Position numbers: made by a program. Shown here piece by piece: positions 18,093 through 24,000 of a stretch of 39,982 bases of DNA. How positions within the stretch are numbered: the stretch's first letter is position 1; each line of letters begins with the position of its first letter. The stretch is from Fibrobacteria bacterium. Lineage in GTDB: Bacteria; Fibrobacterota; Fibrobacteria; UBA11236. The stretch is taken from positions 1-39,982 of the forward strand of contig JBGTHM010000119.1 of assembly GCA_041746255.1 (NCBI GenBank). The letters run 5' to 3'.

Positions 18093-21000
18093 TTACCTTC
18101 GACGTTTACTTCGGTACCGGAATACTTGCCGTAAAGAACGGTATCACCGGCTTTGACTTCCATTTTGACCAATTGTCCGGAATCCGAGGGCTTTCCCGGG
18201 CCTGCGGCGATGATTTTGCCCTTCTGGGGCTTTTCTTTGGCGTTTTCGGGGATATAAAGTCCACCAGAGGTCTTTTCGGCGGCTTCCAGTGGTTCGACCA
18301 GGACGCGATCTGCGAGAGGTTTGATATTCATGGTTTTTTCTCCTTCTAGTACATGGATTCTTGTTCTTTTAGCACTCTCGCGGGGAGTGTGCTAAAGTTT
18401 GGGCAAAATATAAGGAGGTTGAAAGCTCGAATCAAGTAAATGGGAGCAAATCGAGTTAAAAAGATCGAACTTTGTTCCATTTTGAAACTCTCTGCCCCTT
18501 TTACCCGGTTTTTTCAGGTTAACGGCTTTATCTATTTTGGGTGCCGCATGATTAAGGTTCTCTTTCCGCAGATTTCCTGGCCAAAATTTGCATCCCTGAC
18601 CCAGGACTTTTCCAGCACGCACCGGCGATTCATGTGGGCGAATTCGCTCTTGGCGCTGGCCGTAGCGGGGCTGGAAGGTTTTTTCGTTTTGTTGGGGCGC
18701 CGGGTTCTGGAGGGATCCGCAAATCCGCTTCACATCCTGGCGGCATTGGTGGCGATAGCCGCCTTGCGCGCGGGATTGCAGGCTTCGCAGGCCGGTATGG
18801 AAATACGCGCCCTGGGAGCTTGGTTGCAGGAAAAACGCCGAAACCTTATGCAAACCTTGCAGAATTCCTCCGCTCCGATCTACCGCTCCTCGCAGGCGAG
18901 GACTTTTTCCGGCGATCTCACCGAAGGATTGGAAAATTGCGCCCAAGGCATCGCTTCCTATTTGAAATGCCGCGGAGCGGCGCTGCATGTTTTGGCTTTT
19001 GTGCCGCTGCTTATTCTGGTTTCCTGGAAAGGGGGGGCTTTGGCGGCTCTTTTCATTTTACCGGCTGCGGCGGCTTCGCGATTCAAAGCTGCTCGACTGG
19101 CGGTTCTCGAGAAAGACTGGAGCCACGCGCGGCACCGAATAGAGCTCGAGGGCGAAAGTTGGGCGGAATCCCTCGAAAGCATGGCAGGTAACGGATTGGT
19201 TCGGCAACGGGGTGAGGGGTTGTTGACGCGTATCGGCGAGCTGCGAAAACCGGGATGGATTTGGGATTTGCAACGACTCATCTTTCCGCATCTGATGGAA
19301 CTCTACCTGTTTATCCTGCTCGCCGTTCTCATCGCATTGGCCGTCGCCTGGGATGGAGGACTTGCGGGAGGGGGTGCGCATTTTCTTCCCTTCGCTTTTT
19401 TGATGCTTCTGCTTTACCGACCTGTAAGGGAATGGGCTCGCCATTATCCCCTTTACTTGCAGGGCCAGGCCCGTTGGCAAAGCCATGCAGCCCTGATCGA
19501 CCGTATCACCTCAGTTACGGCGCCGGCGCGGACTGCGCCCGCACAAGACGAATTCATTTCCATAAGGGGGCTGTATTTTTCCTATGGCGTACCAACCCGC
19601 CCGCAGGAACCCTCTCCAAAAAATCCGGGGGTATTCGCGGATCTCGATCTCGAATTGGACACACGTAACGCGGTCTTGCTTTGCGGCCCCAATGGCGCAG
19701 GCAAAACCACCTTGCTCAGGCTGCTGTCTGGGTTGGAAATCCCCGACCGGGGAATCATCCGGTATCCGGAAGCCTTGCTTCACCAGGGTAAACCGAACCT
19801 TACCTATTTGCCCCAACGTCCGGTTTTGGACGCGGGAATGCTGGAGGATTTGCACATTTTCCTCAAGGCCGATAAAGACCAAGGGCAAAAGTTAACGCAA
19901 TTATTGGGACTGGATTCCCTGCTGGCAAAGGCGGGCGCAGCTGGGGATGCCTATGCTTCCCTGTTTCCCGGCGCCGGTCTTTCCGGAGGCGAAAGACAAA
20001 GGCTGCGACTGGCCTGGGCGTTTTCCAGATCACGACCCTGGCTGCTACTCGATGAACCGACCACGGGGCTTCCGGGTGGGGAGAGGGAAGCAATCTTTTC
20101 GGGTCTACTGGATTTCCGTCGGAAACTTTGCCCTCATCGACATGGAGTGTTGCTGGTTTCGCATGAGCCCGGGCTTGCGCGGCTGTGCGCGCAAACCGTT
20201 AAGCTGGACGGCGTTCCCGAAAAGGAAACGGCGTGAAAGCCGCGGAGGCCTATTTCGGTGGCCGGGGTTATGTGCTGGGAGCTTTATGGGCCGCACTCCT
20301 TCTCGGCCGAGTCCATTCCTTCGCTCCCCTGCGACCCTTGGCGCTGGTCCCCGTAGCGGCCGGATTTTTTCTGCGGCTATGGGCTTCCCGGTATATCGGC
20401 GCCCACAGCAACGGCATGGTAATGGCGCCCGGCCGGGGTCTCTCGGACGAGGCAACGGCGGCGGGCGGGATGGCCACGGGCGGCCCTTATGCCTTAATGC
20501 GCCACCCGCTTTACCTTTCCAACCTGTTGGTGGCCTCTGGAGCGATTTATTTCGCCAACAGCGGTAGGACACGCGGCCGCTTGGCCTTGCTTACGGCGGT
20601 GTCTTCGCACCATTTGTTGCTGGTTCGGGTGGAAGAGCGCTACCTCTGGAAAACCCTGGGAGAAATTTATGCGCGGTATCGCGAGGTAACTCCTTTGTTA
20701 CCGGGAATCGGAGGCGGGTCCGGGTTCTCCCAGGCGGGGCCCGCTCCCTTCTCGTGGCGCGAAGCCTTCGCTCGTCAGGGAGGCAATCTCGCTCGGGCTT
20801 GCGCGGCTATAGCGATATTGGCGGCGGCACGATGGCGGCGTTGACGCTTTACTCCCTTTTGTGGACCGCACTGTGGCCTTTACTTCGTTTGCTGGCCCGT
20901 TGCGAAGCCGTCGCGCGCAAAATCGGGTTTTCTCCCTGGCCGGAAAGCTGGGCCCTGAGCCGGCGCATGGCTTCGGAGCAGGGTTCGCCGCATGTGCTTT

Positions 21001-24000
21001 TTCCAACATCTGCGCCTCAAAGGGAGGTTTTGTGGATCCACTGCGCCTCTCTGGGAGAAGCAAAAGGCGTAGCGGGAATGTTACCTAACCTAGAGGATAA
21101 GGCGGCGGAGATTCTGCTTACGGCGGGCACCCTCACCGGTCTCGAATTTTTACGCGGGGAAGCCGCGCTAAGATTCGGCCATCGCGAAAAGTCGCCTCGG
21201 GTTCGGGTGGAAATGGCGCCGTTCGACCACCTTCCCCATGTCGGGAAATTTCTCGACGGTAACCGCGTGGCCGTCCTTTGCCTATACGAGGTGGAAATCT
21301 GGCCGCATTACCTGCGAGCTTGCCGGGAAAGGAATATTCCCGTTCTGCTGGCCGCGGCGCGTCTTTCCTCCCGGGCTTATGCCCGCCTTCGCCCCTTCAC
21401 CCAGCTCTATGCCCGCTTATTGGGATCTCTCGATTTTATCCAAACCCAAAGTGAAGCGGATACCCAAAGGTTTCAGGCCCTGGGCGTGAAACCGCCCCTG
21501 GGCTTGGAAACGGGTGCGGATTTCCGGTTGCTGCATTATCTCCAACGGGCGTCGGCAACGACGGACGCGGGGAAGTTACCTGGATTGCCAGGGCAGGGAA
21601 GGGGATTCGCCTTCATCTCCCTACACCTTGCCGAACTCCGCATCTTGCTTCCGACCCTGCGCGCCTTTCCATCCCAGGTGCCGGTGTGGGTTTTCCCCCG
21701 TCTGCCCCAAGAATTAAATCGTTTCCGCAAGCTTTTGCATCCCTTAGGGTTTAGGGATTTTTCGGGCGATTCGGTTGAAGAAACCCTCGACCCCAACACG
21801 CGCTTGGGGCGGGAAACGCTGCAGGGCCCTCGGCTGTTGGTTTGCAGGTGGGGAATGGTCTCACCGCTGTTGACGTCCTGCTACGCCTGTTTCGTGGGCG
21901 GTAGCCTGATTGGCCGTGGTTGCCATAACTTATGGGAGCCCTGGCTGGCGGGATTACGGATTTGCTTCGGCCCTTCGCTGGAAAACCAGGAAACTCCCGC
22001 GCGATTCCTATTGGAGACGAAAGAGGGAGTTATTGTCCGGAGTCCGGATGAACTGAACCGTTATATACTCTCGATGCTTCCATTCATTGGAAGGGATAGG
22101 CTGAACCGGAGCCAGGTTGACTTTCCCGAAGGAATGCGAATCGACGCGCAGGCTGCGAATAAGCGTTTTGGGGAGGTAGTGAGCCGGGCCTTCGCGGAAT
22201 CGACTCGTAGAGCCATGCCGCAAATTTATTAGTTTCTGTGCAGCGGACGCCTCTACTGAGGCAGCCGGAAAGAGGAAAGGGCATCCGTGAAAATTTTTCT
22301 CGCTTCTCCCAGAGGATTTTGCGCCGGGGTCGACCGGGCCATCAGTATCGTGGAAGAGGCCTTGCGGAAATTCGGCAAACCGGTTTATGTTCGTCATGAA
22401 ATCGTGCATAATCAAGCCGTCGTTTCCCGTCTCAAGGAGAAGGGCGCCATTTTCGTGGAAGAGCTCGAAGAGGTTCCGGAAAAATCAGTGGCGATTTTTT
22501 CCGCCCATGGAGTGCCGCGCGCGGTGCATATCGAGGCGCAGGACCGCTCCTTGATTACGGTTGACGCCACTTGCCCCCTGGTTAAGCGCGTACACTCGTC
22601 GGTGATGCGGCATACCAGCAAGAATTTGCAGGTCGTACTCATTGGCCACCGGGGACACCCCGAAGTGGTGGGCACCATGGGACAGTTGCCGGATGGCCAG
22701 GTTCTCTTGGTGGAAACCCCGCAAGATGTGTGGAAACTGGAAGGAGTGGACGAAGAAAATCTGGCCTATACCACCCAAACCACGTTATCCATCGAAGAGA
22801 CGCGCGACGTTATTATCGAACTCAAGAAACGCTTTCCTCAAATCAAAGGACCCGACAAGGGTGATCTTTGCTATGCCACTACCAATAGGCAACGAGCCGT
22901 GCAGGAAATGGCGGTAATGGTGGACATGCTGCTGGTTATCGGTTCAGCGAACAGTTCCAACAGCAACCGGCTGCGCGAATTAGGCGAGCGCATCGGTAAA
23001 AAATCCTATCTCATCGACAGCCCCGTCGACCTGCGCGAGGAGTGGTTTGAAGGGGTGGAGAATATCGGCATTTCTTCGGGAGCCTCGGCGCCGGAAGACT
23101 TGGTACAGGACGTGGTCCGATGGATTAAGGCGCGCTACCCCGGCACCGAATCCGAAGATTACGTGATTCTCGAAGAAAACGTCCATTTCTCCCTGCCGGA
23201 AATTCTGCGTTCCTCTTCGAAGTGAACGCTGTGGCCGAAGCGGAATCCCAGACCGACTTGATAAAGACGCTTGCCTTTTTCATCTCAGGGCATGGATACG
23301 GACATGGAGTGCGTCAAGCGGCCCTTATCAACGCGCTCCCGACGTCCATTCGCCCTTTCCTGTTTACCTCCCTGCCGAAATCCTTCTTTCGGGAAGAACT
23401 GGGGCGTGCATTCCGCTATCGAAAACTGGAAATCGATTGTGGGTGCATTCAACCCGATTCCGTGCATATCGATATTCCCGCAACGCTGGAAACCTATGCC
23501 TCCATTGAGGAAAACAGAAATCGATTGATTCCCGCTACGGCGGAAATTCTGCTTCAGGAAAAAATCGACGCCGTGGTGGGAGATATTCCGCCGCTGGCTT
23601 TTGCCATAGCCGATGCGGCGGGCCTGCCCTCATTAGCGGTGTCCAATTTCAACTGGGTCGATATTTACCGGCCCTATGTCGATTCCCATCCCCAATACGC
23701 CGATTTGCTGGGCCGCATGGAAACGGATTATGGGCTTGCCGGCAAGCACGGGAGGCTTTTTCCCGGAGTGCCGACCCGGGTATTCCGCGAAGAGGTTGAA
23801 ATGGGGCTTTTAAGCCGCCAGGGCCGGAATCGGCGCGAAGAATTGGCGCTTCGTCATGGTCTGGACGTGTCCAAGCGGTGGTGTCTGGTCTATATGGGGA
23901 GCTTCGGTATGCCCGGAATCCAGTGGGAAAACCTTTCCCGGCTGAATGACTGGGAATTTCTCGGTGTTTACCCCTTAGCCGGCGCAGCGCCCAATTACCA

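Follow-up and report, generated by a model that had tools for sequence, protein, structure and literature searches.

A waaA operon retained under selection in class Fibrobacteria, where the known enzymes of Kdo synthesis are missing

Why would a bacterium that lacks the enzymes making Kdo keep the one that transfers it onto lipid A? To our knowledge, Kdo is regarded as the sole universal LPS sugar, and the Kdo-free bacteria we know of lose WaaA too. The question is raised by an operon in the window analysed here, i.e., a stretch of 39,982 nucleotides from a Fibrobacteria bacterium (contig JBGTHM010000119.1, assembly GCA_041746255.1), for which an earlier note had proposed that lipid A is linked to the core through a sugar other than Kdo made de novo, or that Kdo is made by an undescribed route. 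The loss of Kdo enzymes, together with the retention of the genes for attachment, suggests that the sugar linking lipid A to the core in the outer membrane probably has another source.

The waaA operon

Three overlapping open reading frames, all on the + strand, make up the operon: an ABC exporter with TMD and NBD (18548..20236, where the frame is open from 18440 and the ATG at 18548 is the likelier start), an LmtA-like membrane methyltransferase of predicted ICMT/PEMT fold (20233..20844; E 4e-5 to both PF04191 and TIGR04571), and a homologue of the GT30 CMP-ulosonate:lipid IVA transferase WaaA (20832..22232, the frame being open from 20754; PF04413 E 3e-36). The first two genes overlap by GTGA. 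That the methyltransferase stands directly before waaA had been claimed earlier, and coordinate comparison confirms it in 69 of the 71 waaA-bearing genomes of the class, the exceptions being a genome where the genes lie apart (G128) and one where the contig ends (G142). Downstream, on the same strand, follow ispH (22287..23225), which is outside lipid A chemistry and comes after waaA in 15 of the 21 class loci examined, and a GT-B glycosyltransferase weakly resembling MJ1255/VC2487 (23222..24331), seen in seven of the 21 and possibly a core extension enzyme. Farther on, on the - strand, lies an LpxJ-like acyltransferase of the DUF374 family (30142..30747; PF04028 E 2e-22), a family that we take to be linked to LpxJ; the gene is close to waaA in 5/20 other class loci. 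LpxJ enzymes do not require Kdo (PMC6286764).

WaaA itself is kept, as the note had it, in nearly the whole class (71/73 genomes), where it forms one clade (SH-aLRT 100). Aligned to the A. aeolicus enzyme (2xci), it retains the equivalents of S28, G30, E31, E98, W102, R212, G248, N273 and E276, so that the gene described as intact with its catalytic motifs is indeed so, except that K162 is replaced by R in this genus; catalytic or CMP-binding roles are given for G30, E31, E98, K162, R212, N273 and E276 in PMC6286764. Across the class, the histidine of PRH is kept in 9% and GNLK has become GD(F/W/L)(K/R). The predicted structure (pLDDT 86, pTM 0.88) agrees with this assignment, as its top Foldseek match is 2xci (E 1e-18, the next family being at 1e-9). 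The protein passes the PF04413 cut-off and falls under that of the NCBIfam WaaA equivalog (119 bits vs 438). Compared with the sister species, both being without kdsB, waaA has a dN/dS of 0.24 over a dS of 1.4. WaaA is under purifying selection and, judging by its residues, looks like a functional enzyme.

The lipid A pathway, the exporter and the methyltransferase

The genome carries LpxA, LpxC, LpxD, LpxB, LpxK, an LpxL-family gene and GmhA/GT9 genes, and this much of the lipid A gene set reported earlier stands. A canonical msbA elsewhere in the genome does not, and heptosyltransferases do not occur throughout the class (they number none in G086 and G104). LpxA and LpxC occur in all 73 class genomes, LpxK in 70 of them, LpxB in the four tested, and an LptC match was found in G042. 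Among the three enzymes checked residue by residue, LpxC keeps its zinc and catalytic residues, LpxA the equivalents of H122, H125 and Q73, and LpxD those of D232, Q236 and H239. Use of non-hydroxylated chains by LpxA and LpxD is rejected in view of the retention of residues recognising the 3-OH group; the fatty acids of Hallerella porci include 10.6% iso-C13:0 3-OH (PMC7738495).

No stops or frameshifts are present in the WaaA and Lpx matches listed, and catalytic residues are invariant across the families. Invariant residues are retained at 0.34 in LpxC, 0.55 in LpxD, 0.68 in LpxA, 0.66/0.50 in WaaA and 0.68/0.56 in KdsB, a comparison by which their loss is pathway-wide; in some class genomes the LpxL-family matches are as weak as E 1e-7 to 6e-4, and those of LpxK reach only 1e-11. 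Pathway genes have dN/dS values of 0.21-0.24, against 0.02-0.07 in housekeeping genes. The low score of WaaA had been read as pointing to a new sugar, and this part of the proposal falls, because the divergence of LpxC, LpxK, LpxB and the LpxL family, none of which ever touches Kdo, equals or exceeds that of WaaA.

The ABC exporter has intact Walker A/B, LSGGE and H-loop motifs, and its family profile finds MsbA as the best single-unit bacterial exporter in the PDB (E 6e-44). The gene is not among the TIGR02203 (MsbA) matches at E<=1e-30 and, in the tree, sits in a long-branch clade that is not placed with MsbA, whose canonical clade has no member in the four class genomes tested (G000, G042, G086 and G104). 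The operon gene is probably the class's own diverged MsbA, a lipid A flippase. Its neighbour, the methyltransferase, is present in 72/73 class genomes, and the family profile matches the M. acetivorans-type ICMT 4a2n at 3e-12. It scores 23.5 bits against TIGR04571 (LmtA), whose cut-off is 325; the fold and the lipid A gene context suggest a lipid A phosphate O-methyltransferase, in which case lipid A is probably phosphate-methylated.

Synthesis and activation of Kdo

The claim that kdsA and kdsD are absent from the class holds in the larger count. No genome of 73, five of them single-contig, has kdsA above the cut-off, as opposed to 59/78 in the other classes of the phylum; for kdsD, the best class match is at E 3e-12, the matches listed span only the CBS part and no SIS match was found, whereas 57/78 genomes of the other classes match the SIS domain at E<=5e-29. 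All class I synthases of this genome have the KPRT motif of DAHP synthases; no KdsA, with its KANR motif, was found there, and unfiltered hmmsearch and tblastn with the KdsA profile over the whole genome returned DAHP synthases only. No spare member of the broad PF00793 and PF01380 families was seen in five genomes, nor any KdsA- or KdsD-like gene after pyrG or kdsB in 14 loci. That Kdo is not made de novo by KdsD/KdsA in this class is well supported. KdsC is uninformative in this respect, because it is rare even among kdsA-bearing genomes (16/151).

Across six enzyme families no class-wide synthase was found. NeuB, the Kdn/sialic-type synthase, is rejected in this role by its presence in 1/56 genomes of the largest family (it occurs in 11 of the 72 other class genomes), and DAH from DAHP synthase by a genome (G086) devoid of the class I DAHP/KDOP family. 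A Kdo aldolase of the DapA/NanA family is rejected on account of the single DapA-like copy in 5/5 genomes, an HpcH aldolase by the finding of none, an HMGL aldolase by the fact that HMGL-motif proteins, as named from their sequences, appear to be just LeuA/CimA-like with none spare, and a diverged A5P isomerase because GlmS and GmhA are the only SIS isomerases in the five genomes searched. The 296 annotated proteins of G042, from 75% of its genome (1.2 of 1.6 Mb screened), included no synthase, and the G042 genes missing here, over the same 1.2 Mb, neither a synthase nor a linked transporter. This genome has no sialidase-like Asp-box protein.

The loss of kdsB was likewise described as part of the pattern, and it is real here, as only a few bases, and no kdsB, separate the end of gatC (C55:11139) from the start of pyrG (11146), the best tblastn match to KdsB in this genome is a PseF-type gene, and the junction is closed in the same way in the sister species (G168). 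It is, however, a genus-level event and not the class state. A KdsB-like gene is found in 30/39 genomes of the order. Gaps in the assemblies explain the apparent absences in G108 and G173, where contigs start inside pyrG, and in G142 and G171, where pyrG itself is missing; three more concern genomes that are 66-86% complete (G154, G166 and G167). kdsB is truly lost in this genus alone and kept across the class. The tree puts 14/14 class sequences with KdsB (support 90/73), one of three tested passes the NF003952 cut-off, and the CTP/Mg core (PARxxSxR..K, QGDEP and the Mg aspartates) is 100% kept in all 14. In the sugar pocket, K142, Y179, E204 and R207 are retained at 100%, R156 at 92% and H175 at 71%, while Q205 (28%), Y153 and S155 (0% each) are mostly lost; YFSR has changed to (D/E/N)F-x-R, and LEQLR to HE(I/L/M)LR or (L/I)EPLR in 10/14. 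The retention of the catalytic core and of most polar residues of the sugar domain favours Kdo or a close analogue as substrate.

Two cytidylyltransferases had been named as possible activators in place of KdsB. The NeuA-like orphan at C90:29511-30281 is a real candidate, being present only in the two verified kdsB-less genomes of 39, syntenic and 78% identical between these species, with a dN/dS of 0.08; it keeps 82/111 family-invariant residues, some of those missing being in the nucleotide loop, and heads a surface-polysaccharide locus, which it may serve instead. The PseF-type gene (C115:94570-95298) is rejected, as it sits in a pseudaminic-acid cluster; it is 44% identical to a differently built sister-species gene.

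The linking sugar

The reading we prefer, at a probability of about 0.45, is that lipid A, probably phosphate-methylated, is capped with a Kdo-like acid supplied by an unrecognised route. Lipid A would be built by a complete but fast-evolving Raetz pathway, the operon performing the last cytoplasmic steps: WaaA would move a CMP-activated 2-ulosonic acid onto lipid IVA, a phosphate of lipid A would be methylated by the LmtA-like enzyme, and the finished product would be flipped by the ABC exporter. The acid, Kdo or a close analogue, would be of endogenous origin, its synthesis having no relation to KdsD/KdsA, and its activation would fall to the KdsB of the gatC-kdsB-pyrG locus, a task that in this genus, after the deletion of kdsB, the acquired NeuA-like enzyme may have taken over. 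What is observed is which genes are there and which are not, their linkage, the intact motifs, the fold and the purifying selection; what each enzyme does, which sugar is used and where it comes from, the MsbA and LmtA functions and the hand-over from KdsB are inferred. The occurrence of WaaA in a genome of 1.6 Mb (G042), along with GT9 and GmhA genes in the order, speaks in favour of the acceptor sugar being continuously available. A wider version, possible rather than likely, is that methylated lipid A is joined to the core by a non-Kdo acid of an undescribed pathway, the phylum having replaced or lost its linking sugar on several occasions. Fibrobacteria would then use an uncharacterised ulosonate, this genus having gone through a second change, that of the activating enzyme; lineages of the Chitinivibrio/Chitinispirillum type and Marinimicrobia would use Kdn, and those that lost waaA no linking sugar at all.

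The acid might instead come from outside: Kdo set free from plant rhamnogalacturonan II, from the walls of algae or from the LPS of neighbouring cells would be taken up, activated by KdsB and attached by WaaA and, when there is none, free methylated lipid A would leave through the diverged MsbA. This somewhat unlikely course would account for the missing synthase, for the Kdo-independent LpxJ-like gene near waaA, for a sugar-domain retention in KdsB (0.56) not below that of the LpxD control (0.55), and for the reported lack of Kdo in laboratory-grown F. succinogenes. In E. coli, labelling of LPS with 8-azido-Kdo depends on NanT, and uptake, KdsB and WaaA are enough to place a fed Kdo analogue in LPS (PMC9535733); free lipid A is found in Francisella (PMC3087551). 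Yet none of 20+ loci has a transporter next to kdsB or waaA, the conservation of an optional cap in 71/73 genomes from many habitats, a 1.6 Mb one among them, would be unlikely, and in this genus WaaA is under selection without KdsB.

A switch of WaaA and KdsB to a chemically different donor, or to another acceptor, creating a new link between lipid A and core, is unlikely: both enzymes have class-specific changes, and elsewhere in the phylum WaaA is coupled to another CMP-sugar pathway, but invariant residues are lost throughout the pathway, the WaaA residues that bind CMP and position the carboxylate are kept, and one class KdsB is still above the subfamily cut-off. That KdsA and KdsD have diverged past detection is less probable still. 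Other members of the pathway have come close to this (see the LpxL-family and LpxK matches above) and the loose first pass of the genome search can miss remote proteins, against which stand the unfiltered searches, the lack of spare family members and the 14 loci with nothing suitable after pyrG or kdsB. Decay, with lipid A no longer made or capped and the genes left as relics, is highly improbable; it would suit the low model scores, the raised dN/dS and the view of F. succinogenes as LPS-lacking, but dN/dS is far under 1, the genes are near-universally retained and their reading frames and catalytic residues are sound.

Compared with the canonical Kdo-lipid A pathway, Fibrobacteria share LpxA, LpxC, LpxD, LpxB, LpxK, late acyltransferases, the GT30 residues of WaaA and, class-wide, KdsB beside pyrG; they differ in the absence of KdsA and KdsD from all 73 genomes searched (and of KdsB in this genus), in strongly diverged later enzymes, in the lack of a canonical MsbA and in an LpxC that is unfused, in contrast to the fusion to FabZ in the phylum's other classes. 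Cyanobacteria too have lipid A genes without Kdo synthesis but their four-enzyme pathway is without LpxK and WaaA (PMC3087551), whereas in Fibrobacteria selection maintains LpxK, WaaA and, for the most part, KdsB. With LmtA of Leptospira, the lipid A 1-phosphate O-methyltransferase of TIGR04571, the operon methyltransferase shares an ICMT/Ste14 fold, RHPLY..N and a C-terminal E, and such a gene is linked to lipid A genes both here, before waaA, and in G004, before a GT9 gene; the LmtA substrate, from the family name, is Kdo2-lipid A, and for the class enzyme the activity is a prediction. The transport, KdsB and WaaA of E. coli form the minimal set for outside Kdo (PMC9535733), uptake there being incidental to de novo synthesis; in Fibrobacteria no linked transporter was found.

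A separate WaaA subfamily (G006, G012, G023, G067, G107 and 80 metagenome loci) lies in a Kdn-type synthase operon, its hosts being kdsA-less relatives and marine metagenomes, and forms a clade apart from the Fibrobacteria WaaA. The KDN pathway of Bacteroides thetaiotaomicron consists of a synthase, a 9-phosphatase and a CMP-synthetase (NF058599). These three gene types accompany the separate subfamily, whereas NeuB and the phosphatase are not class-wide in Fibrobacteria.

As the class has lost Kdo synthesis and keeps activation and transfer under selection, it would have either an unknown route to a Kdo-like sugar or a different linking sugar. These are fibre-degrading bacteria, F. succinogenes being the main cellulose degrader of the rumen; strain S85 is said to lack LPS, and Kdo and 3-hydroxy acids are reportedly absent from the species. 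This old view is reopened, which bears on the endotoxin share of rumen Fibrobacter and is testable in cultured Fibrobacter and Hallerella. The Kdn-pathway WaaA subfamily, in turn, predicts lipid A bearing a nonulosonate in cultured alkaliphiles and marine bacteria.

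The waaA operon and the lost Kdo synthesis genes

Three overlapping genes lie on the + strand of the window. The first encodes an ABC exporter (18548, the likely start, to 20236), the second a 203-aa membrane protein of the PEMT/ICMT family (20233-20844) and the third the WaaA homologue (20832, again the likely start, to 22232); ispH and a GT-B gene come next. Named homologues of this WaaA belong to Fibrobacteria/Fibrobacterota. The same 151 phylum genomes served for all comparisons, 73 from the class Fibrobacteria (the window's genome included; five of the 73 are single-contig assemblies) and 78 from other classes; the largest family, f3, appears to be Fibrobacteraceae. 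Elsewhere in the window, the gene at 24885-26978 (+) encodes a sugar transferase (PF02397) fused through a STAS-like linker to a polysaccharide deacetylase of the XrtA/PEP-CTERM type, which exceeds the TIGR03006 cut-off. The gene at 32941-34800 (+) joins MetW to a homoserine acetyltransferase-like hydrolase and adjoins a HipA-like kinase gene that is preceded by a small ORF (34790-36137, -).

The class-wide loss of kdsA and kdsD claimed in the earlier note is real. kdsA exceeds the cut-off in 0/73 class genomes versus 59/78 of the others; the weak class matches to its model are DAHP synthases bearing the KPRT motif, and an unfiltered KdsA-profile search of the window's genome likewise returned DAHP synthases alone and no KdsA. 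For kdsD, the class matches listed (best E 3e-12) span the CBS part only, whereas the SIS domain is matched at E<=5e-29 in 57/78 genomes of other classes. kdsB is missing from the window's genome and its sister species (G168) at closed gatC-pyrG junctions, but not from the class at large: most class loci have a KdsB-like gene flanked by gatC and pyrG, and the class KdsB profile is positive in 30/39 genomes of the order (including an unpublished one, G161). Three of the nine misses are incomplete genomes; contigs of G108 and G173 break inside pyrG, the assemblies of G142 and G171 are without pyrG, and among the misses examined only the two sister species have a closed junction. KdsB is the class state and its loss local. 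All 14 class KdsB sequences compared keep every CTP and magnesium residue; in the C-terminal domain, described as sugar-binding (PMC3149649), K142, Y179, E204 and R207 are invariant, R156 and H175 are mostly kept, and the YFSR and LEQLR motifs are altered.

WaaA is retained in 71/73 class genomes and the methyltransferase in 72/73, the latter, by coordinates, directly upstream of waaA in 69/71, which bears out the pairing described earlier. The structure model of the window's WaaA is confident and best matches A. aeolicus WaaA, whose S28, G30, E31, E98, W102, R212, G248, N273 and E276 (roles in PMC6286764) have kept equivalents, K162 being replaced by R. Between the window's genome and G168, dN/dS of WaaA is 0.24 at dS 1.4 (methyltransferase 0.23, ABC gene 0.21; five housekeeping controls 0.02-0.07, comEA 0.22), so WaaA is still under selection where KdsB is gone. 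Judged by sequence and model, the protein looks functional; the system behaves like the WaaA step of LPS assembly without belonging to the canonical Kdo pathway.

Divergence across the lipid A pathway

The first reading counted the lower WaaA score among its evidence. Divergence, however, is pathway-wide, and the score thus carries no specific information on the sugar: class LpxC sequences match at E 1e-14 to 1e-40 and those elsewhere mostly at 1e-63 to 1e-91, LpxK at 1e-11 to 1e-47 versus mostly 1e-50 to 1e-86, LpxB at 3e-41 in the window's genome versus 2e-81 in G004 (with canonical MsbA), and the LpxL-family at 4e-13 versus 7e-37. LpxA is least diverged (70/73 class genomes over cut-off). 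The fractions of reference-invariant columns kept, rough values from references of 5 to 30 sequences, are 0.34 for LpxC, 0.55 for LpxD, 0.68 for LpxA, 0.66/0.50 for WaaA and 0.68/0.56 for KdsB; catalytic residues of LpxC, LpxA and LpxD are kept, including those recognising the 3-hydroxyl.

Several features of the lpx genes may be added. LpxC and FabZ, fused in the other classes, are encoded separately in this class (L096-L115); the LpxA R204/R205 uracil-binding motif is lost in most class sequences; in f3, lpxA lies apart from the cluster, where lpxD comes after a lipid-kinase-like gene. In the window's genome (G000) two inserted carbohydrate-binding-like genes separate lpxD from lpxC. A second lpxC, with the start of lpxA, is found on a 2.8-kb contig (C77:793-2763); this copy of the C125:38494-40790 cluster probably stems from a variant strain or from duplication in binning.

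The msbA formerly credited to this genome was not found in canonical form: the phylum's canonical MsbA clade (G025, G004; about 490-530 bits) is unrepresented in G000 and in three other class genomes (G042, G086, G104), and the best TIGR02203 matches of all four fall into other groups of exporters. Against the PDB, the best single-unit bacterial exporter for the operon ABC profile is MsbA (E 6e-44), with eukaryotic ABCB and soluble ABC-F ranking higher. Since the tree leaves the operon exporter on a long branch, it is from context and absence that we infer a diverged MsbA. The window's methyltransferase has an ICMT fold and matches LmtA, which has a role in lipid A modification (PMC13066512), far below cut-off. 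Its closest G004 match precedes a GT9 heptosyltransferase gene. A DUF374 gene, of a family we take to be linked to LpxJ, lies 8 kb from the window's waaA, and one is near waaA in 5/20 other class loci. LpxJ enzymes are described as not requiring Kdo (PMC6286764).

Other Kdo losses and published chemistry

Kdo was dropped more than once in the phylum. Five genomes (G006, G012, G023, G067, G107) are without kdsA, kdsB-clade and kdsD genes and carry a separate WaaA clade, its gene adjoining those of a KDN-9-phosphatase-like HAD and a NeuA-type synthetase; the operons of G067 and G107 also encode a NeuB-type synthase. Of the 297 metagenome stretches with this subfamily, the best 80, many on short contigs, were examined: HAD occurs in 66, NeuA in 37, NeuB in 34, MsbA in 5, and KdsA or KdsB in none; a 240-aa gene follows waaA in 60/80. 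Source names include Chitinispirillum alkaliphilum, Chitinivibrio alkaliphilus and Marinimicrobia, with many marine metagenome contigs (L333-L412; genomes L056-L059, L061). The gene content of this operon predicts a Kdn-type (or related nonulosonate) lipid A link. Genus g23 (G009, G015, G101) and seven g27 genomes have lpxA/lpxC and mostly lpxK, with no waaA and no kdsA, and would be further independent Kdo-free lineages. G067 (C8; L059, L060), G085 and G133 (L062, L063) each have two WaaA genes, a canonical and an other-clade copy; in G085, G133 and G069 the other-clade waaA sits between a GT9 and a radical SAM gene.

Vinogradov et al. in 2001 reportedly found neither Kdo nor 3-hydroxy acids in F. 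succinogenes S85. Their title, as cited in PMC8942020, calls the strain 'lipopolysaccharide-lacking', which fits the loss of Kdo though not the presence of lipid A; phenol-water extraction could miss lipid A bearing little sugar. Hallerella porci is listed with 10.6% iso-C13:0 3-OH (PMC7738495). In Cyanobacteria, Kdo-free LPS is described as accompanying loss of LpxK and WaaA (PMC3087551), whereas the class retains WaaA (71/73); Fibrobacter goes unmentioned in that survey. No paper on Kdo or lipid A genes of the class was found in a search with subscription journals outside its scope; supplements of envelope surveys (PMC5007114) may list the genes.

Source of the sugar

Among the families searched, there is no known synthase class-wide. 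NeuB occurs in 11/72 other class genomes and 1/56 in f3; class I DAHP synthase is absent from G086, where aromatic amino acid synthesis must therefore begin another way; five genomes each have a single DapA-like gene; no HpcH aldolase or spare SIS isomerase was found, nor a spare HMGL-motif protein in the window's genome or 75% of G042. In G042, 989 ORFs were called in 1.2 of 1.6 Mb, and the 296 annotated (169/233 without a match in the window's genome, 46 weak and 81/109 low-identity) include no recognisable ulosonate synthase. This genome (1.6 Mb, 32% GC) encodes HMG-CoA reductase and numerous Ig-like (Big_2) repeat proteins and contains a prophage-like block (L141-L200); it looks host-associated and still keeps kdsB, waaA and lpx genes.

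An orphan NeuA-like cytidylyltransferase (C90:29511-30281) scores high in only 2/39 order genomes, the two without kdsB, where the pair is syntenic, 78% identical and at dN/dS 0.08. Elsewhere its family lies in a cassette with an epimerase (69/80 loci), a HAD phosphatase (69/80) and a 2-hydroxyacid dehydrogenase (65/80), orthologues of which are missing from the window's genome. It may replace KdsB, or may merely serve the adjoining surface-polysaccharide locus, which downstream (C90:19600-22043) holds phosphonate biosynthesis genes for a decarboxylase and for a PEP mutase-like protein that includes a cytidylyltransferase domain.

How the pathway is fed can be read in several ways. Simple decay, to be set against the selection on WaaA, is very improbable, and KdsA and KdsD escaping detection is scarcely better placed. 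A chemically different donor, considered beside both the invariant residues and the altered motifs of KdsB, is improbable, and salvage of Kdo, though the strongest of these rivals, is still unlikely. Near-universal retention, surviving even genome reduction, favours instead a Kdo-like acid that would be made by an unrecognised route and feed activation and transfer, to which we give a probability of about 0.45. The pattern itself is real and, as far as our searches show, undescribed: in class Fibrobacteria, Kdo synthesis has been lost while activation and transfer are kept and selected.
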